Notes under the pieces: model-generated | Seen by the model: the letters and a program-made list of their open reading frames with translations, nothing else | What the model was told of the DNA's origin: nothing | Database searches by the model: none | Part shown: piece after piece, positions 1 to 46,077 of the stretch | How the letters are laid out: every line of letters begins with the position of its first letter | Position numbering within the stretch: the first letter of the stretch is position 1 | Translations under genes and position numbers: made by a program | NCBI GenBank assembly: GCA_036172245.1 | Contig: JAYWIR010000172.1 | Span: forward strand, 1 to 46,077 | Direction: 5' to 3' | DNA length: 46,077 nt | From: Raillietiella orientalis | Lineage: Eukaryota

Positions 1-47
1 TGGCAGAACTCCCAGACCCATTCCTTAAAAAGGTCCCAGTCCAGGAG
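1..47 (-). mobile_element. ORF2 fragment (EN-RT linker) of a minus-strand LINE that continues left out of the window; target of element A1
   Basis: Reverse complement reads (N)LLDWDLFKEWVWEFC, matching TLQDWDRFKRSIQEFC at 2601-2650. Confidence 0.8.
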
Positions 48-90
48 ATTCCGGAGCGTCGAGCGGACGTGTCTTTTCGTTGCTCCTGAG
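48..90 (+). promoter_or_regulatory. Conserved LINE 5'-terminal motif (ATTCCGG...GAGCGGACGTGTYTTT), putative internal promoter
   Basis: Same motif at the 5' ends of copies at ~7631-7661(-), ~9629-9655(-), ~34622-34655(+), ~42525-42560(+). Promoter function is inferred. Confidence 0.6.
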
Positions 91-141
91 TTCCATTTCC
101 GTTGGTGCTTGTGCGTGGTGTGGGTGGAGGATTAGGCAGAA

Positions 142-1800
142 GTGCCTGATACCACCATCGGTGAGGATCCGGGGGCGATGACCTCATTGCCCCCGGAGCA
201 GATGGAGGTGGGGGCTCCCGCATCAGTGGAGGCTCCCGCCAGCACGGATGGGGCCCCGGCCCTACCCAGGGCTTGGAACGCCGTGGCTGCGGCACCTACG
301 CCAGCGGCTATGGCGGAAATGCGCGCTTACCTAAAGGAGGGGTATAACCCACCCCTTCTATATAAGGTAGGCGGTCTATATTCTCCCGAGAACGCGCGCG
401 CCTTCTCACAGGCGATGCGCGTTCTCGGCGTACAGAAAGAGGAGCTTCTGGCTATGTCCGTCAGAAGCGGGGGTCAATTTGTGGAAGTTATCTGCAAGGA
501 GGCAACTCTTGCGCGGAGAATTCTGCGAACCCCCGTAATTATGGGCAGCCGGAGGCTTCTTTCAATTACTGAAGACCGGTCGTTGATCATTCACCTGACC
601 GGTATCACGTTCCGGATGACGAAGGAGGCCGTCCGGAACCAATTGGAAAAATTCGCAACTGTCCACGCGCTGTGGGGAAAGCCTACTCCTTTTGTCGATT
701 ACGACGGGGTGCTTGGCAGCCTGGGTGCAGCGCGAGTGACGGTTCGCGAAGGGTGTGAGTTTCCACACAAACTCACCGTTAACGGTAAATCCGTTGACGT
801 GTGGTGCGTTGGGAAACCCAAATTCTGCGGCTGCTGCAGCAGCTTTGGTCACCTTAAAATGAGGTGTCCGAGCGTGCAGTGCCAGCAATGCAAACAAGCG
901 GGGCACACCGGTCTGGTGTGCCCCCAAAACACAGTCCGCGTCGTGTCCGCAAAAAACGTAAGATTGCGCGCGGCTGAAAAGAGGAATAAGCTGGCAGCTC
1001 GTGCTGCTGCTAAGGAGGTCACTTCCGCCACCAAGGCGAAGGCCAGCCCCGAGACCCTGGCGAAAAACGCCGAAAAGGTCGAGGGCGAGGATCAAGAGCC
1101 AGGGTGGCAGAAGGTCGATCCCAAGAAAAACTCCCATAAGAAGGGAAAGAACGTGGCGAAACGGAGCGAAACCGCTCTGCGCCGCGAAAAAATTAAAAGC
1201 TGCTGCGTCGTTGTAGAGCGGATTCCCGCCATCGACGAATGCGGCGCTAAAGAACTCGCTGCTGCCCCTGCTGAACCCTCCGTTGACAAAGTCAACAAGG
1301 AGGGGAGCGAGGCGGCGGTGTCCGTCACCGAGCCCACGCTCGATGACGTCGCCTTCGAGCATGCCGCGGAGGAGCTGGCTGCCTCGTTGCAGCCGGTTGC
1401 CCCCAAGGGTGGCAATAAGGCCGTCAGGCGTCCGGCTACCCCTCAGGAGTCGGCCACTTCCGACCCGGAGGTGAAGGCCGGAAACACAGCATCCATCTCC
1501 GCGGCACCCCGCAAAAAGACAGGACGAAAGTTCACAATGCCCCGGAAGATCGTCTCCCCCGACGAAGGGGAAGAGATGGCTTCCGGTAGCGAGGGTGCCA
1601 TGAGCGTGGGAAACTCCCGGGACCCGTCGTCCGAGAGAATTCCACGTTTGGACACGGAGGGGATGGTGAGGATGGAGGCCGAACAGGTACCCCAGGCGCC
1701 TGAAGAGGCCTCCGTCCTCGTTCCGATGGTCCTCGTACCGATGGACCTTTCCTACACCTGCCCCGCGGCAGGTGCCGCGACGCCACTTTCCCAGTTATAA
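142..1800 (+). CDS. LINE ORF1, gag-like nucleic-acid-binding protein (RRM-like region, two zinc knuckles, basic/low-complexity C-terminus)
   Basis: 552-codon open frame with CGCCSSFGHLKMRC and CQQCKQAGHTGLVC knuckles. Position 142 is GTG where paralog A2 has ATG (34735); first in-frame ATG is 178. Confidence 0.88.
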   Translation: MPDTTIGEDPGAMTSLPPEQMEVGAPASVEAPASTDGAPALPRAWNAVAAAPTPAAMAEMRAYLKEGYNPPLLYKVGGLYSPENARAFSQAMRVLGVQKEELLAMSVRSGGQFVEVICKEATLARRILRTPVIMGSRRLLSITEDRSLIIHLTGITFRMTKEAVRNQLEKFATVHALWGKPTPFVDYDGVLGSLGAARVTVREGCEFPHKLTVNGKSVDVWCVGKPKFCGCCSSFGHLKMRCPSVQCQQCKQAGHTGLVCPQNTVRVVSAKNVRLRAAEKRNKLAARAAAKEVTSATKAKASPETLAKNAEKVEGEDQEPGWQKVDPKKNSHKKGKNVAKRSETALRREKIKSCCVVVERIPAIDECGAKELAAAPAEPSVDKVNKEGSEAAVSVTEPTLDDVAFEHAAEELAASLQPVAPKGGNKAVRRPATPQESATSDPEVKAGNTASISAAPRKKTGRKFTMPRKIVSPDEGEEMASGSEGAMSVGNSRDPSSERIPRLDTEGMVRMEAEQVPQAPEEASVLVPMVLVPMDLSYTCPAAGAATPLSQL

Positions 1801-4800
1801 TGCCGGGAATCGCCTCTCGCCGTCGTCTTCTGATCGCCTGTTGGAACGTGAACGGGCTAAGCGACGACGGCAAGAGACGTGACATGGCCGCCACTCTGGC
1901 ATCCTTCGACCTGGTGCTGCTGCAGGAGATCCACGTGATATCCGCAGATCAAGCCCGGGAGATCGAACGGATCTCGGGTGGGCGGCAGTTGTGGCGTTGC
2001 AGCACCGCGAAATCAAGCGGTGTCGCCTTCCTGCTTGGGCCAGTAATCAAGACCGCAATAAAGGACGTTCGGTTCGATGACGCAGGTCGCGTCGGTCAGC
2101 TGACTCTCAGCTGGTCCGACTCTATCGACCTGGTCGTCCCCAACCTATACGCTCCTAGCGGAAACAACGCGTTGAGGGCGAAGGCAAGAAGGGAATTCTA
2201 CCTTGCCCTGAGACGCGATTGGCTGACCGATGCAGGAGTTCGCAAAGCGCACCTGATCGCAGGTGATTTCAACCTGCGCCTGCTTTCACGTGCGCCGGAT
2301 TCACTGAACGACCGCGTCAACGAGTTGTGCGCAGAAATGAACACGCGCAACTTGTTGGCCGGGTACACGGCCATGGAAAGCAGCATCGATCACGTGTAAA
2401 TTGATCAGCACCTATGCTCTCGGGTGGGCAGGCGCGGCAAGGTAGCATCCGAGCTGTCGGACCATGGTCGGATCATGTTCGAAGTGCGTCCGCGCGACAA
2501 GGGCCCTTCCTCGTCAGCGTGGCATCTGCCAGGGTACTGGCTGAAGTTTCCCGACGCGGCGGAACACCTCCGCGCGTTTATTTGGAGCTTCAGGATGCAG
2601 ACACTTCAGGACTGGGACCGCTTCAAGCGGTCGATCCAGGAGTTCTGCGACCAGTTCCCTCTGCACCGCCTATCTACGGGTTTTGGGACCGGGGTCCGTA
2701 ACGAACGAGCCTACCTGCAGGCCCGTCGTTACGCAAGGACCCCTGACATCCGCAGGCTGGCGGAATACAAAGCGGGAGCCGAGAGGCAAGCCTGGCAGTC
2801 CGGATCGGCCAGCGTGCTGGACGATCAGGGCCAGGAGCATTCAGCAATCGCTCAAATCCGCGTCCTACTGCGGAGTTACTACTCCTCCCTGTATGCCAGG
2901 GCACCTCCGGAGAGGAACGTCTCACGACTCCTGCTTTCACAAGGCGCTCCAGCGATCGGGGAACAGGTGAGAAAGACCCTCGCCGAGCCTTTCACAATAG
3001 ACGAGATCCTCTCGACCATCGGAATGCTCAAGAGGCGCAAGACTGCAGCAGAGGACGGCCTGCCCGCGAAGTTCTACCAAACTTTCGCGGCTGAGCTTTC
3101 CCCCCTGGTACAACAACTCACCTTGCTGATACGCAAGACAGGTGACGTTCCCGCCTCGTTTCGTTCGGCAAAGGTGCGGCTCCTCCCTAAGGGAAGAGAT
3201 CTGAGGAGCATGAACAACTGGCGTCCCATCACAATAGAGAATGCGGACGTCAAGCTGATAGTTAAGGTTTCGGCAGAGTGATTGAGAAAAGTCGCCAACA
3301 TCTTGATCAGCCCGGAACAGACATATGCTGTTCCCGGGCGTAGCATGGAGGCGAAACTCTTCCACCCTTCCACCTGGCTAGAGCTCCAACAAGAAAATAG
3401 CTTGGTGCGCAGCTGAAACTCCGGTGCGTGCGCCGGCAAAGGGTCGGATGGTCGAATGGGGGAGGGAGCCCTTGCGGTCGCAATCGACTTGAGGAAAGCA
3501 GTTGATTGCGTCGACCAGAATGTGCTTGTGGAGCTTCTGGAACGCTTGGGCTTCCCGGACTAATTAGTAGCCTATCTGCGCTCCGGCTGGCGTGACGCGC
3601 TCATCAACGTTTCTTTCAGCGTGCAGACCGTGCACGGCGTGCAGGTGCGGCGTGGGATCCGAAAGGTAGACAGTCCTAGCTCGTTGCTCTTTAGCATCTT
3701 GTTTGAGTTGGTGCTGAGGGCGTACAGGCTAACGCAGGCGAACCTGCCGAGCTCTTGTCCAGGAACGCCGTCCTTGACGGCCTATGCTAACGACCTGCTT
3801 CTCGTTTTACCCATGAACACCTTGGCGTCCGGTCTCGAGGATTTCTTTGAACTGATTCGCCTGGGAGCGGGCATGAGTGTAAACCGGAGCAAGAGCGTGC
3901 TCCTACCTATTGGTGCGGCGTGGGGAAGCAGTCCGACTGGATCGGCCTGGGGATCCCGACCGCTCCGTCCACCCAATATCTGTCGTTACGCTGGGAAATA
4001 TCAGCCCAGAGGGAGTGTTGTCGGACTAACTACGGAAGGCGATGAGTGCTCTGAGCCCGTTCCACCATGACAGATTCGTCCTGCCGGAGCGGTCCGCGAT
4101 ATGGAACACCTTCCTTTCCCCTCTCTTGCGTCCATTGGTTTTAGTTTGCTTATCCCTACTCGGCCAAGCACCAGGCGCACAGCCTATTTAATAACGCTCT
4201 GTGGGGACCTGCCAGGTCCCGGATCCGTGTCAAGGACTTGTCGGCTGCGCGTCCAAATGCTGGCTTAGGCATCCTGACGCTGGAGAGAATGAAGTTGCAG
4301 GTGCAACTTGGGATGTTGGGTATGTGCGCCAACCTTTGGTCCACTCCGTAGTGCGCTCCCGCGCGCTTGCTTCTGCGGCGCTGCACAGGCAAAGATGGGC
4401 TTCTTCGCTGCGGCCGCACACGGAGCGCGTCACGAGAAGCTTCGGTTTCCCCTTGAAACCGCTCTACCTGCTCCTGGAAGCCCAGGAATGTATCTCCTGG
4501 CACCCAACGAACTTTGAAGAATGGCGGCAGGAACGGTTGCATGGCTGGGCAAAGCACCAGGATGTTTCCCTCCAGGAACTCCGTTGCGCTCACCTATTTC
4601 CGCACTGTACGGTGAATGAGGTGTGCAACAGGCAGGAGAAATGGACCCGCCTGGCCCTTACCTCCCTCCCCGATGCACTGTCAGCCCTCAGGGCAAGAGA
4701 TGACAGTTGCGAACCGGCGAGATGGGAGGTCGCCTGCACTATCGCAGGAACAACGCGACCTATTGGCGGCTGGAGGACTTGCGAGCTGGCAGACGCCGCC

Positions 4801-5348
4801 ACGCCGTTCCACGTTCCGAAGGGACTCCTTCGGTGGAGTAAACACTGGAGTGTGGTTCCGAAGAACTTGTGGTCCCTCCCTCCTGTTTGAACACTTCTGC
4901 GTTCCCTCTTTCATTGAAGCAGGACGGAATCATGATTGTGCATTGCGGTGTTCACTCCAACCAGCGCGCGAACCTTGTTTCCGGGGGAGTCGTCTCCCCA
5001 AACTTTAAGCTGTGCGGGGAAGTGGAAACGCTCCCGTATCTGCTGCTGGACTTTGGTGCCCTTCTAGGACTGTAGCGGCGGCTGGCCTTAGCTCTTCTGC
5101 ACCAGAGGGACACCGCAAGAGACTTGATGCGCCGCTTCTTCACGGCAGGCGGGCTGCCTTTGGCTGCTGTCGTTGCAGCCGTGTGTTTCACCCGCGCCAT
5201 CGACAAGTTCCACCGAGAGTTGGAGAAGCTGGCCATTCTTCGCCAGCCAACCGGATTAGGCAGGGCAAGCATGTCTTCGGCTCCCGAGTAGGACCACCTA
5301 CCAGATAGCGTGAGGAGAGAGATCGCCGGCATCCATCGTCGTTTCTGA
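1800..5348 (+). pseudogene. LINE ORF2 (APE endonuclease, reverse transcriptase, CCHC finger), disrupted
   Basis: WNVNGL, LQEIH, NLYAP, AGDFN, SIDHV, SDH (APE); EDGLPAKFY, WRPITIENAD, AIDLRKAVD, GIRKVD, YAND (for YADD) in RT; stops at 2397 and 3279 plus later stops and frameshifts. Confidence 0.92.
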
Positions 5349-5544
5349 AAGGAAGGAACGGACTCACCAAAGACCCCTGTCCCCTTCCCTCCGTGTTTTT
5401 CTTTTTATGTTTTATAGTAGTGTATTTGTGGTCCCCTCCCTCCCGTTCCGGACTTTTGGCATACAGTCCTGCGTGTCGGAGATCCCACCCCCTTCGTCTC
5501 TGGTTTTTCCCTTTGTGCAGGAACTGTGTTCCGGGATAGTTTTC

Positions 5545-5568
5545 AATAAACGCCCCGGCCCACCAGGT
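5545..5568 (+). terminator. LINE 3' terminus: AATAAA plus decayed GC hairpin, no poly(A)
   Basis: AATAAACGCCCCGGCCCACCAGGT; homologous termini at 34348-34372(+), 37257-37282(-), 40040-40064(-). Confidence 0.7.
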
Positions 5569-5762
5569 TGATAAACAACCGACCCTTCGCGATCGACTGG
5601 AACTTCTGGACTTCTGCCACGGTGAATACCTGGATTTCCTGCAGGAGGACCTGGTCGAGCTCACGCAGGGTGTCGTTGTATCTCGCCTGTTGCCGTCGTC
5701 GCCCAGCCCGTTGACATTCGAACAGGCCGCGTGAATCGGAAGGCGAGTGGCAGGCCCAGGTG

Positions 5763-7555
5763 TTATCTCTGGGAAAATGGTGTTGCGGCGTTCAACACCT
5801 GCTGGGGCGGGACGCTATGTGGTGGAGGAGGGTCAGGTGCTGAAGGTTCCTGGTTCCCCTCCTCCATGGGTAACGGCGCGCCTAGCGGCTCACCCGAAGG
5901 TGGGGTCGCGCCTACCTGTTAGCCCTCCTCCATGGGGGTGGGCTGTTTGGGGTCGGCGACTGCAGAGGGGACTTCACCCTCCTACTCAGCTTCTTCCGTG
6001 GGGGTGGCCTGCTCCAGGGCTTCCGAACGTGGGAATTCTTCCTCCGGAGTTCCCACGGCGTCGACGGCTTCCGTCTTCTCCTCCTGGCTGGTGGAGGGGA
6101 GACGCCTCCTGGGCTTCTGGGACTTGCGTGCCTATTTCCTGGGCGGTGCCTCCGAAGAGGAGGATGTACTTCCAGCCTTAATCGCACTCATCTGCGGGGG
6201 CGTTTTTTGCTGCAGCTGGCCTTCACACGGCCTTGCGTGAGGGGTTCTTACGTTCCGCCAGTGTGGCCGCGAGCTGCTCCGCCGCCTTTGCGAACGCGGC
6301 GTCCCCGGTATCGACCGGCGCGTCGCGCGGCTCACCCTCTGTTTGCACAGAGGGTTCGCCGTCGCGAGCTTCGGGCACGACGGAAACGGTGAGGGGAGGC
6401 TGGTCGCTCCGGGTGGCATCCTCGGGAACGCTGATGCGCCCCAGTGCTACCGTGCACTCGCGGACGGTTTTTGAGAGCGGAGCAAGTTTTTTCGCCTTCC
6501 CGTCCGTCGTTTTCTCCGCCTTTTTTTCCTTGCTTTTTCTAAGTTCCTTTTTGGGGTCTTTCCTTTGTTTAACCTGCTTCCATCACTACTCCACTTCTGC
6601 GTCCTTTGGAGTTTTTTCTTCCGACGCCTGTTTATTAAGAAGAGGAGATAGCGGCTGGATCCTGCCAGTTTTCCGTTGCGGTCTTTCGAACTTTGCTATT
6701 TTAGCCTGCGCTTTTTTGGTAGCATGCGGAACCGGTGTAAGGCGTTTACGGCACACACGACGAACGTGTCCCGTAAACACGCACAAGACGCCCACAATGT
6801 TCGGGCACCGCTTGCGCAATTGTCCTACTGCATTGCAGTATCCACAGTAACGGGGTTTGGTACGTGGGGAAACCCCGTTACTCTGGTACGTGAGCAGAGG
6901 TCAACGGGTTCATTTGCGACCTCTAATTTGTAAGGTAAGCCACCTCCCTCTTTTACCGTGACAGGCGTTGCAGCCTGGCCACCGAAAAGACCATAATAAC
7001 CTTCGAAAATTGTTGGCTTCGGCCACTACGCGAGCACTTCTCCATGTTTTTTAACTCATCACCAACTGGGAAGCGAGTCATTCCGCTGATAATTCCGGTG
7101 AGACGGACAGCTACGGAGCGGTCCATGGTCACCGACAAGTTCTTGCGTCTATCAACGATCAGGGGGTCGGTGATCAGGAGTTGGGTCAAGGTGGTGTCTT
7201 TGCATACAACCTCGACCCGCTGACCGCCGCTGAGGACGGAGAGCGCATCGAGATCTTGTTCTCTGACATTCGCGGTTTGCAGCGCCTTGGTAAATGCGCG
7301 TTCAGTAAGCCTATCAAACAATGGATCAAACAACCCTACCTGGTATACCAGCGAGGGTTTGTACAGTGCTGCCCGAAATGCCATCTGGTCTGCCAAGGCT
7401 TCGGCGCTGGGCGCTGCCACAATGGCACTCCAAGTCCTCGCCTGGATCGGCGGGGACGATTCCGGGGCGGATGCCCCTGATCCAGTAGGCTCTGTGGGTG
7501 AACTAGCCTACCCCACACCTACTCCCATTGCGATGTCCTCTGGCATCGTAGACAT
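5763..7555 (-). pseudogene. ORF1 of B1, frameshifted
   Basis: MSTMPEDIAM start, AAPSAEALADQMAFRAALYKPSLVYQVG, knuckle remnants; stop within TAACA at 5761-5765. Confidence 0.85.
6846..6882. repeat. 13-bp perfect inverted repeat created by a local templated inversion
   Basis: AGTAACGGGGTTT-(11 nt)-AAACCCCGTTACT; absent from paralog B3 at ~43270-43310. Confidence 0.85.
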
Positions 7556-7661
7556 CGGACACCGGCGATGTTAAAAATCACAAACACTCGTTAAGGAAAC
7601 TCTCCTCAAGCCTCGCTGTGGGAGCTACGGAAAAACACGTCCGCTCTTGACGAGCCGGAAT

Positions 7662-8390
7662 TGGGGTAGGTACTCGCAACGAAAAAGCGTATTCATACAC
7701 CTGTCGTTAAGCGAGGATCACCAACGTCCGTCGCTTGGCCGAGTATCGAGCCGGGGCTAAGCGCCAAGCCTAACAGTCTGGGCCTCAATCCTGCTGGACG
7801 ACTAGGACAGGGAACACTCGGTTTTGCCGCGATTCGACACATCGGGAAAAAATTTTATTCCTCCCTGTACGCCAGGGAGCTTTCGGAGCGAGACGCCTCG
7901 CGACTGCTGCTCTCTTCCTCTCCTATGGCCTGGGTTCTGCGGAGCCCCGGCCATAGGAGAGGAAGAGTAGGGAAGCCTCGTCGAGCCTTTGACTAGCAAT
8001 GAAATCTTCACCGCAATAAAAAAACTGGAGAGGCGGGAGGTACCAGAAGAGGACAGCCTGCCCGCGAAGTATTTTCAAAGCTTCGCTGCAGAGTTTACCC
8101 CCTTGGTGCATAAGTTGACACAGCTGATCCGGGATGTAGGCCATGTTGCCGCCTCGTTGCAGTCAGCTAGGATGAGGCTCCTTCCTAAGGAAGGATACCT
8201 CCCCAAGTTGAACAACTGACGTCCGATCACAGTCAAGAACACGGACGTCAAGTTGTTTGCGAAACTGTGGGCTGCGCGGCTAGGACAGGTAGCCGAATCC
8301 GTTCTTAGCCCGGAGCATACTTATGCTGTTTCTGGGTGAAGTACTGAGGCTAACCTTTTCTTCGCCAGAACATGATTTCATGTGCAAAGC
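7662..8390 (+). mobile_element. LINE ORF2 fragment (linker to RT N-terminus), target of B1
   Basis: GVGTRNEKAY...RRLAEYRAGA...EDSLPAKYFQSFAAE...RPITVKNTD; colinear with 45255-45965. Confidence 0.88.
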
Positions 8391-8399
8391 GAAGTCAAA

Positions 8400-9655
8400 G
8401 AGAATAAAAGATCACCGCGGCCTTTGTGGGACACGAACTTTCAGAGGCAATTCCGAGGGCGTCCATGCACAGTTTCCCATGTTTTCCCCTGGACGCGGAA
8501 ACGGACGCATACAATCCAGCAGCCTTCATTAAGTGCGTGGTCGCACTCTTGGGCTGCATCGAAGGGGACGATTTGCCCCCAGGGCTGCATGGTATTTTTA
8601 CCGTCTGCGCGGCTGTCTAGGATGGTGACTTCCCCGAAGCAACCGCGCTCTTTTTTGCGGGACTGCCACTCGATGAGAGCCCGCCCTTCGCGCAGGATTT
8701 CACCCGTGGCACAACGGGGGATCTTTTCGGTTCGAACGGGGTCAATTGTTAACAGTTTCTCGCCTGCCGTTTGCGCTTCAGCTCTGCTCACTCTTTAATG
8801 GAGTGGCCGAGCAGTTTGCCATAGCGGCAGTTGCGAGAAGGGCACGTCCACGGAAGGTGGCCCTCTGCGCCGCTAATGCCGCAAGCCGGTCGCTGACCGG
8901 CAAATTTAAGGTGGACGATCGCATCGCCCATCTTCAATTGCGTAGGCATGTCCCTCCGATCTGCTATGGTGACTCGCGCCATGGCAAGTCTGCTGTGGAG
9001 AGATGCAATCCTTATGATCGGATTGTCTGCTCTCCACAGCGCGTGCACCGTGGCGAATGCACTGAGTGCAGCGACGAGCACGCGATCGGGCGTGTCCACC
9101 TTGACTGCGGACAATCGAGCCACGAACGACTGGTCCATGGCCGACGGGTCCAACTCCTTCCCTCGTATGTTAAGCGGGGTGCGGAGAAGGCGCTGGACTA
9201 GGGATGCTTCTTTGAAGTGCACCTTTTAGAATCCTAGCGCGTTAACCGGCATGACGGCCAGGAGGTCGTCCTGCCGGGACCCGACGCGCAAAAGCTTGTC
9301 TTAGAGAATTTCTCCGACCACGTCGTAGATAGAAGCACTCATCGAATAGCAGAGAGCATTCTTGTGGCCATTAGATGCATATGCCTGCAGCTTCGCTTCG
9401 TCTTACGGTGCTCGGTTTGCTGCCGTCGCCTTGACGACGGTGGCGAGGCTTCTCTCCGGTTGCGAGACATAGGCATCAGAAACGGGATGAACATCCGGGG
9501 TAGAAACTCCGTTGCCCGCTGCAGTCTCCACATCCATCTTCTCCGACACGGGCGCCGTGAACATTCTAGCGAACGCACGTGGGCACACCACAAGCACAGA
9601 AGTCGTAAAGGAATCGAGCTCCTCGAGCAACACAGAACACGTCTGTCCAGCGTCT
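8400..9655 (-). mobile_element. Divergent LINE copy C, 5' half (5' motif plus decayed ORF1 starting ~9565)
   Basis: MFTAPVSEKMDVE...RSLATVVKA...AYASNGHKNALCY...QDDLLAV...KEASLVQRLLRTP...FATVHALW...CGISGAEGHLPWTC; 5' motif GACAGACGTGTTCTGTGTTGCTC. Confidence 0.82.
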
Positions 9656-9820
9656 TCTTTGAGCGGTTTCCCGCCATCAGCGTACGCGGCACAATGAAAC
9701 TCGCTTCTTCCACTGCTCAACCCTCTGTTGACAAAGTCAACAAGGAGAAGAGCGAGGCGGAGGCGTCCGTCATCCATCTTACGCTCGATGACGTCGCCAT
9801 TGAGCGCGCCGTGGCGGGAT
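9653..9820 (+). mobile_element. Subfamily A ORF1 internal fragment, target of copy C
   Basis: VFFERFPAI...PSVDKVNKEKSEAEASV...TLDDVAIERA matches 1207-1370. Confidence 0.85.
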
Positions 9821-34625: not shown

Positions 34626-37256
34626 CTCGAGCGAGAGCGGACGGGTTTTTGTTTCGCTCTTGAGCGTTTGTGGATTTCTTTTTTTTTCTTTTTATTCTTA
34701 GTGTGCCAGTGGATTCAATCGTGAATAAGCAGCAATGCCTGGGACCACCATTAATGTTAAGGAGGGGGCGACGTCTATGTCGCCTTCTGAATCAATGGAT
34801 GTGGGGGCAACCGCCCCCACAGAAGCGACTCCCGCTCTAGGGAGAAGCTGGAGTTCCGTGGCTGCGGCGCCAACGCAAGCGGCTGCGGCCGAGTTAAAAG
34901 CCTACCTAAAGGAGGGGTACAGTCCCCCTTAACTCTACAAGGTAGGCAACCTTTACTCTATTGAGAGTGCACGCGCTTTCTCGAAAGCGATGCACTCCTT
35001 TAAAGTACACCAGGAGGAGCTCTTGGCGATGACCATGAGGAGTAATGGACAGTACGTTGAGGTGATTTGCAAAGAAGCAAGTCTTGCCCAGCGTCTGCTT
35101 CGTACACCTGTTTCTTTGGGGAATCGCCGGCTCCTCTTCATCACGGAGGATATATCTATCGGAATCCATCTCCTCGGAATGACCTTCCGGATAGCCAAAG
35201 AGGCTGTCGGAGAATAATTAATTAAATTTAGAACCGTCCACGCGTTGTGGAAAAAGCCGACTTCATTTCGGGAGCACTATCTGCTAAATTGCGGCCAGGC
35301 TTCCGCGCGAATCACGTTCTGCGAGGGTTGCTCTTTACAGAAAAAGCTGGAGGTCAACGGCGTCCCCGTTGACATCTGGTAAGTTCGTAAGCCGCATTTC
35401 TGCGGGCATTCCAGCACTTCAGGTCACCTGAAAAAAAGGTGCCCCCACTTGCCGTGCAAGCAATGCAAGCAACCCGGGCACACTCTTCCGGTGTGCTTAA
35501 AAAATGAAGTCCGCGTCGCGTCCTCACGGAATGCGAAGAAGCGCGCGTCCGAAATATAAAGGGTTCAGGCATCGCAAGAGAGACCTGCTGCTAAAAAGAT
35601 AACTATCGTGCCCCAGGTGAAGGTCAGCTCCGAGATCCCGGAAAACTCGGAAAAGGTCGAGGAGAACGGCCAGGAACCTGGATGTAAGGTAGTAGAATCC
35701 AAGAGTCAGAGTAGCCTCAAGAAACCAAAAAAAAATGTAGCGAAACGCACCGAGAAATTGCCGCCTCGCGAAAACATCAAACGCTGCTATGTCGTCTTTA
35801 AGCGCATTCCTGCAGTCCAAAAGAGCGGCAAAATTGCACTCGTCGCTGCCGAGTCTCAGCCCTCCGGCAAATTAATAGCGGAGGCTATCGACCCGGCGGT
35901 GGCGTCCGTCGTCTAACGCATGCTCGAAGACGTCGCCATTGAGCGAGCGGCGGAGCAGCTAGCTGCGTCCTTGTACCGTCTCCCCAAATCCGCGAAGAAG
36001 GCTTTAAGGCGTTCGACCTCGATCAAGAAGTCTTAGATTCCGAGCTCTGTCGCAGAGGGGGAAAACACAGCCGGCGGCATCGCGACCTCCCGCCCGAAGG
36101 CCAGTCGCACGAAGAAGGCTACCTGCAAAATTATCCCGTTCGTGGAAAAGGCAGAGATAATCGAGGGAAGCGAGCGTGCAAAGAAAGTGGGGAACTCCGG
36201 GGACTCTCCTCGAGAGGTAACCCCACGCTGAGACCCCGGAGGGAGGGAAAGGGTAGAGTCTGTACCCCAGGAGATTCCAGTGCCTGAGATGGCCGCGGTT
36301 CTCTTACTCGTTTTTCTCACCTGTCCCTTGACAGGTGCTGCAACGCCACGTTCCCAGCTTTCATGCCGGGAATCGCCTCTTGCCGCCGTCTGCGAATTGT
36401 TTATTGGAACGTCAATGGGCTATGCAACGACGGCAAAAGACGAGACGTGGCCTTCACCCTGGCATCGTTCGACCTGGGGGTGCTGCAAGAGACACTCGTG
36501 ATCTCTGTGCACCAAGCAACGGAGATCGAGCGTATCTCGGGTGGACGGCTGATGTGGCGTTGCGGCATCTTTAAATCTTGCGGTGTTGCATTCCTGCTTC
36601 GGAATGCTGTGGAGGCTGCGGCAAAGGGCGTACGGTTCGATAGTGCCGGTCGCGTCGGGAAGTTGACCATCAGGTGGTCCGACTTCATCGATCTGGTCAT
36701 TACCAACGTGTACGCCCCAAGCGGCAGCGACGCGCTAAGGGCAAAGGCAAGGAGAGATTTCTTCCTTACTCTGAGGCGCAAATATCTGTACGAAGCAAGA
36801 GTGCACAAAGCGCACCTAATCGCAGGTGACTTTTACCTTCGCCTGCTGTCAGGTGCGTCCGACACACTTCGGCACCGCGTGAAGGAGCTGTGCGCAGAGA
36901 TGCACACGCGCAACTTATTCCCAGGAGATACGAAAATGGCCGACAGCATAGATCACGTGTTTTTTGACCAGCACCTATGTTGACGCGTGGGCAAACGCGG
37001 CAAGTTACCGTCGGAACTGTCGGACCATTACCGGATCTTATTCGAGGTGCGCCCACGCGATAGGGTTCGCCCGTCATCTGCGTGGCGCTTAGCGGGGGAC
37101 TGGCTTGAACTTCCGGAAGCCGCGGAGCATCTCTGCAGATTCATACGAGGTTTCAGCTTGCAGACGCTTCAGGACTGGGGCCGCTTCAAGCTCTTGGTCC
37201 GGGAGTTTTCCGACGAGTTCCCTATGAAACTCCTGCCTGCAGGGTTTGGTGTTGCC
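34622..37256 (+). mobile_element. LINE copy A2, 5' half (ORF1 34735-36363 with stops; endonuclease from ATG 36363)
   Basis: Colinear with A1 48-2695; WNVNGL, NVYAP, AGDFY, SIDHV, SDH; ends at LPAGFGVA. Confidence 0.92.
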
Positions 37257-37842
37257 ACCCGGGTAAGCCCGGGGCGTTTATTTAAAAAAGCTCTCTGTGA
37301 TTCGTGGTATAAGGCCCCACTGCTGCCTTAGACAACCGACCTGTCGGGACACCGGGACGCAGCCCGGAGTGGCACTACCCGACAGCGAAAGGGGATGGGG
37401 TCAAAACAAAAAGAAAAATAAAAGAGATAAACAAACAAAAAAAGTTTGGTGGGCAGGTAATGGATCACCGGAAGCTGTGAAAAGGGCCAATCTGTCGAAG
37501 GAAGCCCTCGAGGTCTGTCCGCATATTTCACAGATGGGGCCATCGAACAGCTCACCGCCAGCAGCGTACTGCGTGCTCGATGACTTCCTTCTCGTTCCAA
37601 CCTTCATCTTCGCTGTTGGCATCGCTCCAAGCCGACACGATGCGTCGAACGCAGCACATGACTGCGAGGGCTGTTGCTGGCTGCAGGGCGTCCCGCACGA
37701 AGAAGTGGCGGAAAAAGTCTCTGGGTGCAGTGCCCGTAGGGATTCCTAGGGTCGTCCCGAACCGTTCCCAAAGTGGCTGGAGGGCATCTCAATCCAATAT
37801 AAGGTATGGGAGCGACTTCCGCTCCCCGCACCTGGCACACTG
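37257..37842 (-). mobile_element. LINE 3' end fragment (CCHC finger, 3' UTR, terminus) inserted in A2
   Basis: CARCGERKSLPYLILD; terminus AATAAACGCCCCGGGCTTACCCGGGT. Confidence 0.88.
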
Positions 37843-40034
37843 ATGCCTCACACTTTCCCGCGTCCTCTGCGCCGACGGCGAGGAGTTGGAGTGCCGTCGT
37901 TGCTGCACCATCCCCGGCTGCAGTAGCGGAGCAGACTGCCTACAACGACAGCGGCTACAAACCGTCGCTGATCTACAAGTTAGGCAGTGTGTTCGATGAG
38001 AAAATTGCACGCTCCTTTGAAATGGAGCTGCAAAGACTGAATGTGAGGGAGGAAGACTTCGAGGGCCTCTCCGTCCTTAGTGGGGAGCAGCGAGTTGAGC
38101 TGACTCGCAGAGAAGCAAGTTTAGCGTAGCGCCTGCTAAACACCCCCATTACGGTGGACAGCCGCAGGATCTTCCCTGTGACGGAGGACCATTCCGTCGT
38201 GGGAAAGCTTAAATATTGTGGCCATTGCGATGCTACAGGGCACTTAAAAAAATGGTGCCCTAACATCCAAAGCTACTTATGTGGAAACAAGGGCCACATC
38301 CGCAAGGTGTGCCCGAGACGAGAAATCTTGGTTCCTCCCGCTGCGAAAAGGGCAAAGCGGAAACGGGCGGGAGAGACGCATACCATGAAGCAGGCCGTAA
38401 GGAGACAGATGCCAGTCCCTAAGCCATCCCAGCAAACGTCTGTTGAGAGCACTCCCGACGACGCTGGCGACGGCGAAGTCTGCAAGACGGTACAGCCCAG
38501 AAGAAAGCCCTGGAGTTCCGAACGAAGCGCGGGGAAAACAAAAACGCAGCGCGAAAAACCGTGCCGCGAGAGAGTTCGCGCTTGTTCGGTAAAATTAGAG
38601 CGTGTGGAGGCACTCGATGCCGCCATCGGGGGAGCAATCCCCCCACTCGCGTCCGCCGAAGCCGCGACGATCGATGGCGAACCCTCTGGAAAAACAGAGG
38701 GGAACAGAAGGGAAACAGAGGGGAACTGCGCGCCGCGCTCGACGCGATCGCAGGGGCCGCCTTCCAGCAGGCGGTGGAAGAACTCGAGGCAGAGCTGCAA
38801 GGCCGTGAGAAGAACTTCCGAAAAGGCTGACGAAGGCAGGCCGCGAGGAAGGTTCCGGATGCAGGTGAGGCCGAACCGGATGCCAGAATTGCGTCCTCAT
38901 CAACATAGGCGCCACCAAACAAGACAAGACGCAAGTCCCAGAATCCCAGAAGGCGCATAGGGATCAAGAAGGAGGAGCATAAACTGGCACTCGAGGGGGA
39001 AGCCGGCAGCGTAGGAGGCGAGAGTGGGAATCTCTCATTTCTCGACACCGTGCAGCTGGAGACCCCTGTGGAGGAGGAAGTACAGGTGGGTGAAACCCCG
39101 CTTCCTTTGCACGGCCCTGACGAAGACGCGGCCCCCATGGAGGAGAAAGAAGCGGTGCGCGACGCACCCCCTTCCCCTTGCGTCCCGCCCGACAAGGTGG
39201 CAGGAGCCCTATTGCCACTTTCTCAGGATTAACACCTGGACTCGCCTGTCGCCGTAGGATCCGCATAGCCTGCTGGAACGTCAACGGGCTTCGCGACGAC
39301 GGCAACAGGGGGGATACGGCCGACACCCTGCGCGACTCCGACCTGGCGCTTCTGCAGGAGATCCACGTGATCACCGCGGAGAACGCCCAGGAGATCGAGA
39401 GGATCGCAGAGGGTCGTCTGTTTTGGCAATGCGGCGCCCGTAACACCTTTGGCGTCGCCTTCTTTATGAAGCCAGCAGTGCCCGCCTTCGTCAAGAACGT
39501 GCACTTCGACAACGACAGTCGGGTTGGCCAGCTCATCCTTAGGTGGTCCGACTCGAGCGACCTTGTCGTGACCAATGTTTACGCTCCGAGGGGAGGATGA
39601 GGATACGGAGAACGTTCCCGGTTCTTGGAAACCCTGAAGCGCGACTGGCTGCCGGATACATACGTACGCAAAGTGCATCTGATCGGTGGGGATTTTAATA
39701 TCCGCCTGCTCTCAGGTGTGCTTTGCGGGCAAAAAGACGCAGCCAACGAGCTGTGCACTGCTATGCGCACGCACAACTTGTTGAGAGACATACCGGAAAT
39801 AATCCAAAGCGTAGACCACGTCTTCTTTGACGCCGACCTGTGCCCAAGGGTAGGCAAACCAGGGATACTTCCTTCGACGCTATCGAACCACTTCCGATTG
39901 ATATTCGAGGGTTTGCCTCGCGACAAAGGACCATCATCCAGGGCGTGGCGTCTGCCTGGGGACAGGACGCGCATCTCAGAAGCGGCGGAACATCTCCGCC
40001 AAGTACTGAGAGGCGTCATCCTCCAAAATCTCCA
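37843..40034 (+). mobile_element. LINE copy B2, 5' half lacking 5' UTR (ORF1 to TAA 39230-39232; endonuclease 39232-40034)
   Basis: RSWSAVVAAP...GYKPSLIYKLG, CGHCDATGHLKKWC, WNVNGL, LQEIH, NVYAP, GGDFN, SVDHV; ends at ILQNL. Confidence 0.9.
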
Positions 40035-42524
40035 TTGAAACCCGGGTGCGCCGGAACGTTTATTCTCACGAATAAACCTATACAATCTGTGACTGGACCA
40101 GTAGTCCAGCCACGCCCTGGAAAGATATAGCCTGCCGGGCTATCGGTGCGCAGACTGGCGCGGTCGACCTCGGCAGCAGAGGGGTGGGGGAACGAAACAA
40201 AAAAAAACAAAAAATGAACAAAAATCAGGGAGGGAGCGGGAAGGGATCACAGACTGCTGGGAGGGTCCGTCATCCTCTGGAGGATGCCGGCAAGCTGTTT
40301 CTGCGTTTGTGGTTCCAGATGGGGCCATCGCGTCGCCATCCTGAGAAAACGGGCGGCATACACGTTGGCATCCCTGTCGCTGGATCCTTCCGTCGCTTTG
40401 CTCCATGCCACGACGATCCCGCGTAGGCAGAACAGGGCTGCAAGCGAGGCCGCTGGAGGCAGGGCGTCACGCACGAAGAGGAAGCGCAAAGCGTCTCTGG
40501 GGTTGCCTTCGGGGATCCCCAGGGCTGCGGCAAAGCGTTCCCACAAGAAACGGAGGGCAACACAATCCACTAACAGGTGGGGGAGGTATTCCCTCTCCCC
40601 GCACCTGACACAATTAGGGTTGACACCCCCCCGGGTCCAGTGGTGTCGGCGGGCGTTGCAAGGAAGCCCCCAATGCAACACCAGCAGTGCCGACTGTTGC
40701 CACTTCATGAGGAGGGTGCGCGAGTCCATGAGCACCGGGGGCCACTCGAGATGTTCCTCTGGAACATCCAGTAGCTCTCCGCAGCGCAACAATCCATTTG
40801 GGGTGGTCCTCGGGGTCGCAGCGTTGGTGAGCTGACCCGTTCTCCAATCCCCGATCTTCTGTGCCCTGCTGGCGATCTTGACAGTCACCTCCCATTGTGC
40901 CGCGACGTCGCTGCCCAGATGTTCCCGGAGGGTAGGCAGTACCGCAGCAAGGGAGGTTCTTTGTGCCCACGCTCTCCTTCGGGTATTCTCGATGATTTCT
41001 CGGAGCGTGCGGTGGGCATGCGGCCCGAACAGAGCTATTCGCTCGTGTTGCGGGCTCTGCTCCTGAATCATCGCCCACGTGCGCACGGTTTCCTGCAACC
41101 AGGCAGGACCGTTCGCGGGGCGTACGAGGATCCGCTCCGAGTTGTTCTTCACGAGCTTGGCCGCCCTCCGAAGTTGGAGTCCGCAGTGGCAGATGGGGCT
41201 TCGGAGTGCAAAGTAGGACGAGAGTCCTGCATTGCCGGTGGCCTGCTCGACGAGGAGACGTGCACGGAGGCACCAAGGGGTGCACCAATTTTCTGCCATA
41301 AAGGCAACAACTCGGAACTGGAGCTGTAGCTCCAGCCGCTCCAACGTCAGGAGGCTCAGACCACCATCCCGACGAGGAGCAGCCGGGGTGGACATAGGCA
41401 GCAGCAGCAGAAGGTCTTCCGCGTACGCCGAAACCGCAGGCGTACCGGGACAATCGCACGGCAGGTGCGCCAGAGTCTCCCTGTACGCTCTCAGCACCGA
41501 TTCGAAATAGGCGCTGAAAAGCAAGGGGCTGAGGCTGTCTCCCTGCCGTATGCCGCGTCGCACCGGTACGCCGTACACGGTGGATCCACTAAAAAACACA
41601 TTAATAAGCGCGTCGCGCCAGCTGAAGCGCAGGTAGGCCAACAAAGAGGCCGGGAAGCCCAAGCGTTCCAGAAGTTCCAGCAGGAGATTCTGGTCGACGC
41701 AATCGAATGCTTTATGCACATCGACTGCGACCGCGAGGGCTCCTCTCCCCTCCCGACCATCCCGTCCTCCACCGACGGAAGCACCGGAATTCCGGTTGCT
41801 TATTATGCTCCTTCCTTGTTGGAGCTCTAACCATGTGGAAGCGTGGAACAGGTTCGCCTCCATACTTCGCCCGGGAACAGCAAATGTCTGTTCCGAGCTG
41901 ATGAAGATGTTGGCGACCCGTCCCAGGCGCTCTGCCCACAGCTTGGCTAGCAACTTGGCGTCCGCATTCACTATTGTGATGGAACGCCAGTGGTTCATGC
42001 TCCTAAGGTCTCCTCCCTTAGGGAGGAGCCGCACCTATGCTGAACGAAACGAGGTGGGAACGTCACCTGTTTCGCGGATCAGCAAGGTGAGTTGCTGTAC
42101 CAGGGGGGTAAGCTCAGCCGCGAAAGTTTGGTAAAACTCCGCGGGCAGGCCGTCCTCCCCTGGAGCCTTCCGCCTCTTGAGCTTTCCGATGGCCGAGATG
42201 ATCTCCCCTATCGTGAAAGGTTCGTCGAAGTTCCTTTTCTCCTCCTCCCCGATTGCTGGAGCACCTTCCGGAAGCAGGAGTCGTGAGACAGCCTGCTCCG
42301 GAGGCGCCCTGGCGTACAGGGAGTAGTAAAATTTCCTCACTATCCCGCGTATCTGAGCGGGAACCGAGTGCTCCCGGCCCTGGTCGTCCAGCAAGCTGGC
42401 CGACCCGGATTGCCAGGCTTTCCACTCGGCTCCCGCTCGATACCCTGCTAACCTGCGCATGTCGGGGGTTCTCGCGTAACGTCGGGCCTGAACATAGCAC
42501 CTTTCGTTACGCGGCCCCTCCCCA
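40035..42524 (-). mobile_element. LINE 3' half (linker, RT, CCHC finger, terminus) inserted in B2 and itself interrupted by B3
   Basis: KAPGEDGLPAEFY, VDVHKAFD, GIRQGDSLSPLLF, YAED, CVRCGEREYLPHLLVDC; terminus AATAAACGTTCCGGCGCACCCGGGT. Confidence 0.93.
40247..42524 (-). pseudogene. ORF2 RT and C-terminal portion, with one stop (~42035), YADD changed to YAED, and an in-frame deletion at ~41375
   Basis: ORF track 42035-42799 and 40247-42034 are the same frame separated by a TAG. Confidence 0.88.
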
Positions 42525-42629
42525 AATCCCTCTCCTCGAGAGCGGACTTGTTTTTCCGGCGCTCTGCGAACGAGCAGCGGAAAGCGGTTTTTTGGTTCAG
42601 TGTGTGCTTTTTCACATCGTTGGTGTCCG

Positions 42630-44377
42630 ATGGCATCGCTCCCAGAGGACACCACGATGGAGGTAGGCGTGAGGCAGGCTAGCCCCCCCCACGACCTACA
42701 GAATCTGGGGCACCCGCCCCGGATTCGCCCTCGTCGCCCAAGACGAGCAGCTGGAGCGCCATGGTCGCCGCGCCGAGCGCGGAAACCTTGGCTGAGCAAG
42801 CGGCCTACAGGGCCTCCGGATATAAACCATCGCTGGTTTATAAAGTAGGAAACCTGTTCGACGGTCGCACCGCGCGTACCTTTAGCAAGGCACTACATGA
42901 ATTCCCCGTGCGTGAGGAGGATCTTGACGGCCTCGCAGTACTCAGCGGGGGGCAACGCGTGGAGGTCGTCTGCAAAGACGTAGCCCTAGCGCAGCGCCTC
43001 ATCAACACCCCGCTGGATGTGGCTGGCCGAAAGATCCTACCCGTTAGCATGTACCGCTCCGTAGTGGTCCATCTAACGGGGATCACGAACCGCATGACCC
43101 GCTCTGCGGTGAACGCGGAATTGAAAAAACACGGAGATGTGCACGCGCTGTGGCCAAAGCCAACCATTTTTGACGGCTATAACAGCCTCTTTAATGGCCA
43201 GGCAGCAGCGCGCGTCACTGTGAACGAGGGTGCTGGGTTACCCCACAAACTGGAGGTCGGGAAGGAGCCCGTAGACCTCTGGTATGTGGGGAAACCCCGC
43301 TATTGTGGCTACTGCGATGCAGTAGGGCATGTGCGCAGGCGGTGCCCGAATATCGAGTGCCACTTGTGCGGGCAAAAGGAACACGTCCGTCGTGTGTGCC
43401 CTAAACGCCCCACCCCGGTGCCACCTGCTGCCAAAAAGGCACAGGCGAAAAAGGTGGATAAGGTCGAAAGACCTCATCGCGAAAATGGCCGGCCCCAGCA
43501 GCCTTCTGCTCCTCCTCCAACCCAGGCAGCGGCGGAAAAAACCGCGAAAGACGCGGGCGAGGAAGAAGGTTGGACGCTGGTAAAGGCCAGAAAAGAACCC
43601 AAAAAAGGTTCACAAGAGAAGGCGGAGAAAAAGCCGGTCGCGAAGGCGAAAAAACCTGGTCCGCGATCTAAAACTCTCCGCGAGTGCTCGGTAGCACTGG
43701 AGCGCATCAGCGTTCCCGAGGCTGCCACCCGAAGCGACGAGGCTCCCCTCGCCGTTTCCGCCGCGCCCGAGGTTCGCGACGGCGAACCCTGTTTGCACAG
43801 AGGGTGAGACGCGCGACGCGCTCGCCGCCGGCGAGGACGCCGCCTTCGCGAACGCGGCGGAGGAGCTCGCGGCCACGCTGGCTGAGCGTGAGAACCCCTC
43901 ACGCAAGGCCGTGCGAAGGCCGGCTCCGCCGAAGAAGGCCCCGCAGGTGAGTGCGCCCTGGGGTCCGGAAGTGCATCCTCCTCCTCGGAGGCACCCCCCC
44001 GGAAGACGGGACGCAAGTCCCAAAAGCCGAGGAAGCGCCTCCCCTCCACGAGCGAGGAGGAGAAGCAGGAAGTCGCCGGCAGCGTGGGAATCCCGGAGGG
44101 GGAGCTCCCACGCGCGGAAGCCGTCGAGCAGGACACCCCCATGGCGGAGGGTGAGCAGCGGGGCGAAATCCTTCCTGCCGTCGCGGACCACGAGGAGCCC
44201 ACCCCAATGGAGGAGGGCCAGCAGGTAGGCGCGACCCCACCTGAGGGTGAACCGCCCGACGCGCCGTCACCGATGGAAGAGGGTGGCTAGGTGCTAGAGG
44301 CACCTGTCCCTCCTCCTCCACCTAGCGTTCCGCCCCAACAGGTGGCGGACGCCGCACAGCCGATTTCCCAGGAATAA
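42630..44377 (+). pseudogene. ORF1 of B3 (frameshifts, one internal stop at ~44288)
   Basis: MASLPEDTTMEVG start; CGYCDAVGHVRRRC and CHLCGQKEHVRRVC; stop TAA 44375-44377. Confidence 0.88.
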
Positions 44378-46077
44378 CACCTGGGCTCGCCAGTCGCCGT
44401 CGGATTCGCGCCGCCTGTTGGAACGTGAACGGGCTGCGCGACGACGGTAACAGGCGAGATACGGCCGACACCCTGCGTGACTTCGACCTGGCCCTGCTGC
44501 AGGAGATCCACGTGATCACCTCGGCAGACGTCCAGGAGATCGAGGCGCTCGCGGAAAGTCGACTGTATTGGCGATGCGGCGCCCGCAACACCTGCGGGGT
44601 CGCGTTCTCCGTCAAGCCGACCATCGACGCTGCCGTGAAGGACGTACGCTTTGATGACGACGGTCGGGTCGGTCAGCTGATTCTCAGCTGGTCCGACTCG
44701 ATCGAATTGATCGTCACGAACTGTACGCCCTGAACGGAAAAGGTGGATACAGCGACCGTACCAGGCTGCTGGAAACCCTGAAGCGCGATTAGCTGGCCGA
44801 CACGAATGTGCGGAAGGCACACATGATAGCTGGAGACTTCAATCTCCGTCTGCTGTCAGGTGAGCACGAAGCACAAAAACGCACGGCCAACGAGTTGTGC
44901 GCTGCCATGCGCACGCGCAACTTGTTGGCAGACGCGGAGGGAATGGACCGCAGCATCGACCACTTCTCCGTGGATGTCGACCTGTGCTCACGGGTCGGCA
45001 AACGGGGAAAAGTTGCGTCGACGCTGTCGGACCATTCCAGGATCATCGCCGAGGTTTGCCCGCGCGACAAAGGACCCCCGTCCAGGGCGCGGCGGCTGCC
45101 TGGGGACTGGACGCTGCTCTCAAGGTGCGAAAGAACACCTTCGCGAATTCCTGAGAGGCGTCACCCTCCGCAGTCTCCAAGACTAGTACCTCTTCAAGGC
45201 CACGGTCCGCGAGTTCTGGGAGGAGTTTCCCCTGCACCGCCTGCCCCCCGGATTCGGGGAGGGAGCTCGGAACCATCGGGCTTATCTACAGGCCCGCCGG
45301 TGCGAGAGGACCCCGAATGTCCGTCGCCTAGCGGAATATCGAGCCGGGGCCGAACGCCAAGCCTGGCAATCCGGGTCGGCCAGCTTGCTGGACGACCAGG
45401 GCCGGGAGCGATCCGCCCCACCCGCGATCAGGCACCTCGTGCGACGTTACTACTCCTGCCTCTACGCTAGGGCACCCCCAGAGCGGAACGCATCGCGGCT
45501 CCTGCTCCCGGATGGAGCCCCGGCAATAGGGTAGGAGGAGAAGATCAGCCTCGATGAGCCTTTTTCTACCGGTGAAATTCTCGCCGGTATTAAAAGGCTC
45601 AAGAGGCGAAAGGTGCCAGGGGAGGACGGCCTGCCTGCGGAATTCTTTCAATGTTTTGCGGCAGAGCTGGCACCCCTGGTGTCTCAGTTGACCGGGCTGA
45701 TCCGAGACGAAGGCGACGTTCCCGCCTCGTTTCGGTCAGCCCGTGTGAGGCTCCTCCCGAAGGAAGGAGAGCTGAGATCCTTGGGCAATTCGCGTCCGAT
45801 CACAATCGTGAATACGGACGCCAAGCTGATCGCTGGACTGTGGGCTTTGCGTCTAGGACAGGTGGCAGACTTCATAATTTGCCCGGAGCAGACGTACGCT
45901 GTTCCCGGGCGAAGTTAGGATGCCAACCTGTTCTTCGCGAGCACATGGTTCCATGTGCAGCGCTGCCTGAACGACACAGGGGGAAAGATTGGCAACCCCA
46001 CTTTGGGACCGCCAGCTGGGCTAAGAATGGATACCCGGGCTGGGAAAGGAGCCCTAGCAATCGCGGTCGATCTCCAC
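44377..46077 (+). pseudogene. ORF2 of B3 (begins ACA, not ATG; several stops and frameshifts)
   Basis: TPGLASRRRIRAACWNVNGL, LQEIH, AGDFN, SIDH, SDH, RT N-terminal motifs. Confidence 0.88.

Follow-up and report, generated by a model that had tools for sequence, protein, structure and literature searches.

The DNA examined here is a 46,077-nucleotide stretch of the Raillietiella orientalis genome (GenBank assembly GCA_036172245.1, contig JAYWIR010000172.1, positions 1 to 46,077 of the forward strand, hereafter the window), which contains two nests of one group of APE-endonuclease long interspersed nuclear elements (LINEs), with several diverged lineages inserted into one another. Within this window the group has recurrently entered its own relatives at two nucleotide-precise sub-sites in the linker between the endonuclease (EN) and the reverse transcriptase (RT) of open reading frame 2 (ORF2), each insertion parting the EN of the resident copy from its RT. 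It seems likely to us that these are real L1/Tx1-like, site-specific, self-targeting LINEs that insert at fixed positions of the ORF2 linker of their relatives. The splitting of EN from RT had already been proposed in an earlier, sequence-only reading of the same DNA, and within the window it is supported by the precise linker insertions.

Recurrent Target Sites in the ORF2 Linker

Copies were mapped by sensitive BLASTN, by tblastn with the frames of the full-length copy A1, and with an nhmmer DNA profile made from the copies themselves; letters designate the copies, and numbers in square brackets are A1 coordinates, i.e., window positions minus 48. The sequence-only reading had listed nine junctions at which an element terminus adjoins the same LINE group in inverted orientation. 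All nine are present by BLASTN, tblastn, and nhmmer, with the flank on the opposite strand at every one of them (nhmmer profile and tblastn), and remapping gave targets within about 10 bp of those proposed: the flank at 3–59 corresponds to [2600 to 2544], 5573 to [1943], 7655 to [2629], 9648 to [1149], 34369–34635 to [2818 to 2552], 37261 to [2650], 40034 to [2560], and 42531 to [2629]. We also arrived at the same counts, with seven targets inside the 260 bp of the EN-RT linker and six of these inside about 100 bp, at two sub-sites marked by the residues TLQ/DW and GFG.

The first sub-site (site 1; 2592–2613 in A1, plus strand, encoding RMQTLQ/DW) is duplicated or cut in four events and the second (site 2; 2678–2697 in A1, plus strand, encoding GFGTGV) in three, the two lying 85 bp apart, both in the linker. 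Site 1 was used at the 5' junctions of copies A1 and B, at the 3' junction of E, and at both ends of M, and site 2 at the 5' junctions of Y and G and the 3' junction of C. The breaks can be followed in the proteins as well, where D terminates in ...LQNLH and H begins with SLEDCD at site 1, and B terminates in ...GFGVATR and both E and Z begin with GFG or GIG at site 2. Seven of the nine linker copies found in the window are broken exactly at one of the two sites; the linker is intact only in A1 and G, the innermost copies of their nests. Ten of the 11 retained element termini in the window adjoin LINE sequence, the exception being the 5' end of K. Directly after site 1, at 2613–2629 in A1, there is a perfect inverted repeat of 7–8 bp (GACCGCTT / AAGCGGTC), which is not kept in G or B.

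Altogether we counted 10 insertion events, seven of them at the two sites. Four junction positions fit into a span of 17 bp at site 1 and three into a span of 22 bp at site 2. When the 12 mapped junction positions were placed uniformly on a 5520-bp element in 1,000,000 runs, at least four positions fell in one 22-bp interval in 144 runs, and none of the runs gave at least four in one such interval plus at least three in another.

The geometry of the junctions, read in the orientation of the insert, is similar at both sites. At site 1 the flank of the 3' junction (E/D) starts about 17 nt before that of the 5' junction (F0/A1) stops, and at site 2 the C/B flank starts 15–20 nt before the E/G and Z/Y flanks stop. 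These overlapping 5' and 3' flanks indicate that both strands are cut at recurring positions, with an implied duplication of about 17–20 bp. Only one hot-spot insertion has both ends in view, that of M (13859–14688, plus strand), a 5'-truncated copy running from [4738] to the 3' end that was inserted in direct orientation over the site-1 interval of K, an old decayed copy. The left part of K (12275–13858, plus strand), with its head at 12275 and fragments corresponding to [182–444] and [1869–2553], is broken at site 1, and its right part (14689–15585, plus strand) restarts at [2553], continues to [3092], and then covers [4776–5123]. A complete target-site duplication of 13–23 bp, as is proper to a LINE insertion, flanks M. 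Since M uses the same site-1 interval in the direct orientation, the two nick positions would be the constant feature, and the nick priming reverse transcription is usually, not always, that on the sense strand. The strict antisense polarity of the sequence-only reading has therefore to be relaxed, given that nine of the 10 events are inverted (one-sided p = 0.011) and M in K is direct at site 1.

The nesting model gives an age order, with the youngest last, of B < C < D < E < G in the right nest and Z < Y < A1 in the left one. GC content rises with predicted youth in both nests, away from the background of 0.465 (B 0.544, C 0.546, D 0.584, E 0.599, and G 0.625; Z 0.538, Y 0.574, and A1 0.585), this being only a rough clock in which different parts of the element are compared.

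Independence of the Insertions and Alternative Explanations

The Y/Z and G/E junctions are homologous across the join, for which reason a duplicated composite had to be excluded. A history without any targeting, made of a few chance nestings in repeat-rich DNA followed by segmental duplication and rearrangement, would account for the single BLAST alignment at 72% identity that spans both joins, for the homology of the A1 and B flanks, and for the ragged cluster edges with their deletions. We find it quite improbable, because the differences between Y and G at codon positions 1, 2, and 3 (0.33, 0.33, and 0.49; about 505 sites each) and between Z and E (0.30, 0.22, and 0.46; about 200 sites each) show an excess at third positions, indicating that both pairs diverged under selection, as functioning lineages, before inserting, and not by neutral decay after a duplication. 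Besides, E is far closer to A1 (82.5% identity) than to Z (just 67%), the A1/F0 and B/H junctions differ in detail and keep unequal amounts of the duplicated interval, and every one of the three 3' junctions, as well as the M/K insertion, is a unique event at these sites. The look-alike junctions are thus independent events from different active lineages and not one duplicated composite, and independent insertions at the same position, as expected of a target-specific LINE, are found within the window. The inverted joins could also be by-products of single insertions, by twin priming or by a switch of template from one RNA to another. If twin priming reaches the 5' end of the RNA, it gives an inverted 5' segment joined to an internal direct segment, and Y/Z and, on the other strand, G/E have precisely this shape (an inverted 5' segment reaching position 1 plus a direct segment starting internally), as does J/I. 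Against this, G and E overlap over [2629–3445] at only 71.5% identity with a third-position excess, so they do not derive from one RNA and twin priming is excluded for G/E; four 3' tails adjoin inverted internal sequence, a kind of join that twin priming cannot make; and the halves of K lie on both sides of M, with a duplication. Such by-products are accordingly a very improbable source of the pattern. Chimeric joins between repeat copies, produced during assembly, are hardly credible: repeat clusters do misassemble easily, yet copies that differ by 20–45% are in practice unique sequence, the joins fall exactly at element termini with a consistent duplication geometry, and the I/H join is bridged by a contig from a relative (public DNA run X1, see below).

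Several observations weigh against site-specific targeting. Five junction positions lie off both sites, at [589], [1149], [1943], [2818], and about [4960], and in place of the single fixed hotspot that had been proposed there are two sites plus these scattered positions. No motif common to sites 1 and 2, [1943], and [2818] was found by eye, which means that a single sequence-specific nuclease would have to recognize several dissimilar sites. The duplication of the inverted events is pooled from different insertions and never comes from both sides of one, the partner halves lying beyond the window; the orientation count by itself is modest evidence; the GC order is a rough clock; the arrangement of J, I, and H departs from simple nesting; the 5' flank of K, upstream of 12275, is not detectably LINE in profile and pairwise searches; and the sample consists of one 46-kb window with 10 events. 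Some of these features would be expected if targeting were guided by homology or locality, the sense RNA pairing with the antisense strand of the resident (for instance in an R-loop, or where a source locus is transcribed) and the displaced sense strand being nicked as primer, with the hot spots reflecting local structure or a weak nuclease preference. Such guidance would account for insertion being restricted to relatives and for its inverted orientation, it agrees with the five off-site positions being inverted as well and with the lack of a common motif among the four 3'-junction sites, and "local hopping" has been proposed for self-insertion of Alu and L1 (bioRxiv 10.1101/2025.02.26.640385, in the part of that study available). 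We nevertheless regard it as unlikely, considering that seven events converge, on both strands and to within a few nucleotides, on two positions, that M, in direct orientation, uses the same two nicks, which the displaced-strand model does not predict, that the single-strand fold of the hot-spot and linker region is no different from that of shuffled sequences (z from -0.3 to -0.9), and that copies 20–45% different in DNA are poor substrates for pairing.

Proposed Integration Mechanism

Under the site-specific reading, a scheme can be drawn from the anatomy of the junctions and canonical target-primed reverse transcription. The element nuclease would nick the sense strand of the resident at fixed positions of the EN-RT linker that follow directly, on the 3' side, the TLQ(DW) codons (site 1) or the GFGxGx codons (site 2). 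The 3'-OH of this nick would prime reverse transcription starting at the RNA terminus ...CCGGGU, leaving the new copy inverted with respect to the resident. A second, equally position-specific nick of the antisense strand, 17–20 nt away, would produce the target-site duplication. Occasionally the antisense-strand nick would serve as primer instead, giving a direct-orientation copy such as M in K, and occasionally the two ends might use different sites and delete the resident DNA between them, as may have happened with A1, whose 3' end lies at [1943] and whose 5' end lies at site 1, with about 600 bp lost. The target is conserved coding sequence and hence shared across lineages.

Whether the whole picture holds is to our mind evenly balanced, namely that the integration machinery recognizes fixed ORF2-linker sites, two or more and dissimilar, cleaving both strands 17–20 nt apart, and that the copies home, mostly inverted, into relatives and inactivate them, which would amount to a self-made safe harbor combined with competition between lineages. 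The sense-strand nick would come first, the specificity would reside in the nuclease, and the safe harbor would be the possible benefit to the element.

Organization of the Two Nests

Many copies of one LINE group are present in the window, with a mutual identity of just 65–79% in self-comparison. By base composition the window falls into three zones, two of them GC-rich (about 55–63% GC at 1–9.8 kb and 31.9–46 kb) and a middle one at about 46–50%. The left nest opens with F0 (1–48, nhmmer match 3–59, minus strand, E = 1.9e-8), a resident fragment [2600 to 2544] that meets the 5' end of A1 at site 1. A1 itself (49–5568, plus strand) is a full-length LINE of 5.5 kb [1–5520] with both of its own hot-spot sites intact; on the same strand follow its ORF1 (136–1797), the APE endonuclease (1704–2396), and the linker with the start of the RT (2400–3278), the RT continuing thereafter with frame breaks. 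Next comes Y (5573–7661, minus strand), an inverted 5' part [1943 to 1] with its 5' end at 7646 plus some 10 extra nt, interrupted at [1943], where the 3' end of A1 cuts it. The site-1 interval of F0 is of the G/D/Y type, with 13 of 17 matches to G and 7 of 17 to A1 (counted by eye), so F0 is probably the continuation of Y and A1 would therefore probably have deleted about 600 bp of Y on insertion. Y in turn cuts at site 2, with its 5' end, the resident fragment Z (7655–8394, plus strand, [2629–3348]). Beyond Z lies N (8795–9647, minus strand), an inverted copy [860 to 1] with a decayed 5' head, flanked at that end by O (9648–9814, plus strand), an ORF1 fragment [1149–1315] that is 80% identical to A1. 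Separating Z [3348] from N [860] are 400 bp (8395–8794) that have no assigned homology and may be a poorly conserved ORF1 part of N.

Between the nests are K, with M inside it, and an isolated RT fragment (24542–25105, minus strand, [4711 to 4154]) found by nhmmer within non-LINE DNA. The DNA beyond K is not detectably LINE in profile and pairwise searches; upstream of its head, at 12245–12274, there is a CCCCAA-like stretch at about the same offset as in the site-2 flanks of Y and G, noted by eye only. The inter-nest DNA (15586–24541 plus 25106–31852, about 15.7 kb) has 46.5% GC, almost no LINE signal, and, among its frames of at least 70 amino acids, not one with a Pfam match. No host gene was found in the 144 frames of this minimum length scanned across 8.3–32.3 kb, Rfam detected no RNA family in the window, which leaves no hidden RNA-gene target there, and a tandem-repeat search of the window gave nothing relevant.

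The right nest begins with J (31853–32141, minus strand), an ORF1 fragment [881 to 589] adjoining the truncated 5' end of I (32179–34371, plus strand), which runs from [3397] to the 3' end and whose tail meets H at [2818]. H (34372–34634, nhmmer 34369–34635, minus strand) is a middle piece of a resident [2818 to 2552] that the 5' end of B (34622–37257, plus strand, [1–2650]) interrupts at site 1, and B is itself interrupted, at site 2, where it meets the 3' end of C (37258–37806, minus strand), an inverted 3' part [5513 to about 4960]. C is joined through palindromic microhomology of about 20 nt to D (37807–40034, plus strand), a 5'-truncated copy [127–2560] that stops at site 1, where the 3' end of E cuts it. 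The C/D join (37807–37830) falls in a palindromic stretch that can be aligned to both copies, as if a truncated copy had been joined at its 5' end through microhomology. E (40035–42531, minus strand, [5513 to 2629]) is inverted, carries an RT frame of 595 amino acids, and breaks off at site 2, where it is cut by the 5' end of G (42532–46077, plus strand), the innermost copy [1 to 3445], which runs past the end of the window with both hot-spot sites intact (45163–45184 and 45250–45268). The sequence-only reading had missed M in K, the C/D join near 37807, the J/I join near 32150, and K itself with its 5' end at 12275 in non-LINE-like DNA.

Anatomy of the Element

Pfam searches on the translated frames placed an APE-type endonuclease (PF03372) in frame 1704–2396 (E = 4.3e-10), with another at 36288–36980 slightly below the cut-off (24.0 against 24.5 bits), and a reverse transcriptase (PF00078, RVT_1) in 40250–42034 (E = 5.5e-14). 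The endonuclease lies upstream of the RT, the arrangement of an APE-type retrotransposon without long terminal repeats (LTRs). The CCHC knuckle of ORF1 is weak, zf-CCHC giving E = 0.002 and 18.6 bits in 42683–43804 (cut-off 20.8) and a second match under the same cut-off at 31762–31980 (E = 0.0096). Among solved structures in PDB the top relative of the RT is human L1 ORF2p (E = 5e-14), R2-type chains coming at E = 7.5e-10 or weaker, and the EN matches the L1 EN and APE1-type enzymes; the Atlas protein clusters nearest to the RT carry RVT_1 and zf-RVT. A placement in the Tx1 group is plausible.

Heads and tails align from copy to copy. Exact GAGCGGAC 5' heads are found at 61 (plus), 7646 (minus), 34635 (plus), and 42540 (plus), with the decayed 5' head of N at about 9640 (minus). 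With up to one mismatch the motif has 49 hits, four of them exact, where 45.6 would be expected by chance; it is uninformative alone and owes its weight to the coincidence of the exact matches with the start of homology. In Y and G the GAGCGGAC head is separated from the resident sequence by 9–10 extra nt (7647–7661 and 42525–42539), in A1 and B by 1–3; these could be either subfamily-specific 5' ends or untemplated additions. 5' truncation is seen in M, D, and I.

The 3' tails, of the form ATAAAYG..CCGG..CCGGGT, terminate at 5568 (plus), 34371 (plus), 37258 (minus), and 40035 (minus). All five retained 3' ends (5545–5568, 34347–34371, 37258–37282, 40035–40064, and 14667–14688) are without poly(A) and have ATAAAYG followed by a short hairpin-like CCGG..CCGG(G)T, and the initial bases of the complementary DNA are identical at every 3' junction (A, then CCNGG). 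Zepp, a LINE of green algae, has a poly(A) tail.

Observed/expected CpG is about 1 throughout the window, a value unlike that of bulk vertebrate DNA, vertebrates being the best-known home of Tx1 elements. Nearly every segment, also among the old copies and the non-LINE DNA, stays at about 0.8–1.2, the short fragment 24542–25105 (0.70) being the one exception. Nothing in these segments points to CpG loss driven by methylation; the old copies instead lose GC overall.

Relatives Outside the Window

Word-indexed protein searches with the RT frame recovered one close relative, P0008, at 72% identity, the rest being at about 24–33%. When 1.8 billion representative proteins were searched with the linker frame by HMMER, 4350 matches reached E ≤ 0.001, P0008 (66%) being the sole close one. 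P0008 comes from a 2.9-kb metagenome contig, which indicates that the LINE family exists outside this genome. A further candidate, P0014, was rejected as an unrelated tandem-RT gene model. None of the protein matches extends over the initial stretch of about 70 residues of the query, leaving the hot-spot part without outside relatives for comparison, and a metagenome scan with aligned linker and RT-start sequences gave only four loci, at 26–29% identity, useless for junctions.

Among public sequencing runs, one DNA run (X1) carries 7% of the sampled words and appears to come from a relative, and no RNA run is listed as carrying words sampled from the window. Short contigs of X1 are mostly 90–95% alike over 26078–46077. 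One of them, of 284 nt, bridges the I/H junction (34328–34608, with 26 differences). Another links about 44540 to an E-like tail, the same break as in A1/Y; it was not counted as an independent event and may be the counterpart of the A1/Y junction.

Comparison With Known Systems and Implications

PMC4494074 describes Tx1-clade LINEs that enter other transposons at a fixed position and generate duplications of about 16 bp, the specificity being attributed to the endonuclease; examples are Tx1L into Tx1D, Tx1-Mar into Mariner-N4_AMi, and Tx1-8_Crp and Tx1-4_AMi into LTR retrotransposons. The group described here resembles them in being an APE-type LINE with an L1-like RT that enters a fixed position inside another transposon, and it differs in that the target is its own group, in ORF2 coding sequence, with two or more sites. 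The sequence-only reading had pointed to the precedent of Zepp, and rightly so: PMC8226300 describes Zepp and ZeppL, L1-type LINEs of green algae, as self-targeting and nested into their own copies, and with PMC3446292 it depicts Zepp clusters as tandem arrays in which 5'-truncated 3' ends predominate. The window shares with these accounts the nested insertion into existing own copies; unlike them it contains five nested full-length 5' ends (A1, Y, B, G, and N), with nine of 10 events inverted and nucleotide-precise sites in coding sequence. In the portions of PMC8226300 and PMC3446292 that were available, Zepp insertion is not tied to any rule of orientation or site. In human DNA, according to the accessible part of bioRxiv 10.1101/2025.02.26.640385, Alu and L1 have oriented self-insertion hot spots whose strand preference comes from a nuclease motif on one strand. 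There too, new copies favor defined spots in older ones with a strand preference, although those spots are A-rich tracts entered in sense orientation and here they are GC-rich coding sequence entered mostly in inverted orientation. R1/R2-type LINEs offer another parallel, a conserved multicopy target (ribosomal DNA) with both strands cut at fixed positions (PMC1919474, in the text available), with the difference that their target is a host gene and not the element itself, and that the R2 nuclease is restriction-like. The open-access full-text literature searched yielded no description of an inverted, site-specific LINE that targets its own ORF2. The earlier remark that no such system is known to have been described agrees with this as regards the combination, while self-targeting (Zepp) and oriented hot spots (Alu/L1) each have a precedent.

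Should the pattern not hold across the genome, the finding would shrink to a local curiosity. Site-specific LINEs land harmlessly in multicopy host genes, microsatellites, or other transposons. If the reading proposed here is true, the target would be one held constant by selection on the protein of the element itself and common to diverging lineages, and every insertion would disable a relative, making competition and "immunity" between lineages testable. Also of interest, for the study and engineering of LINE target specificity, would be an APE-type nuclease that cleaves both strands of GC-rich sites at fixed positions. Finally, it would offer an explanation for compact, GC-rich nests of LINEs in alternating orientation.

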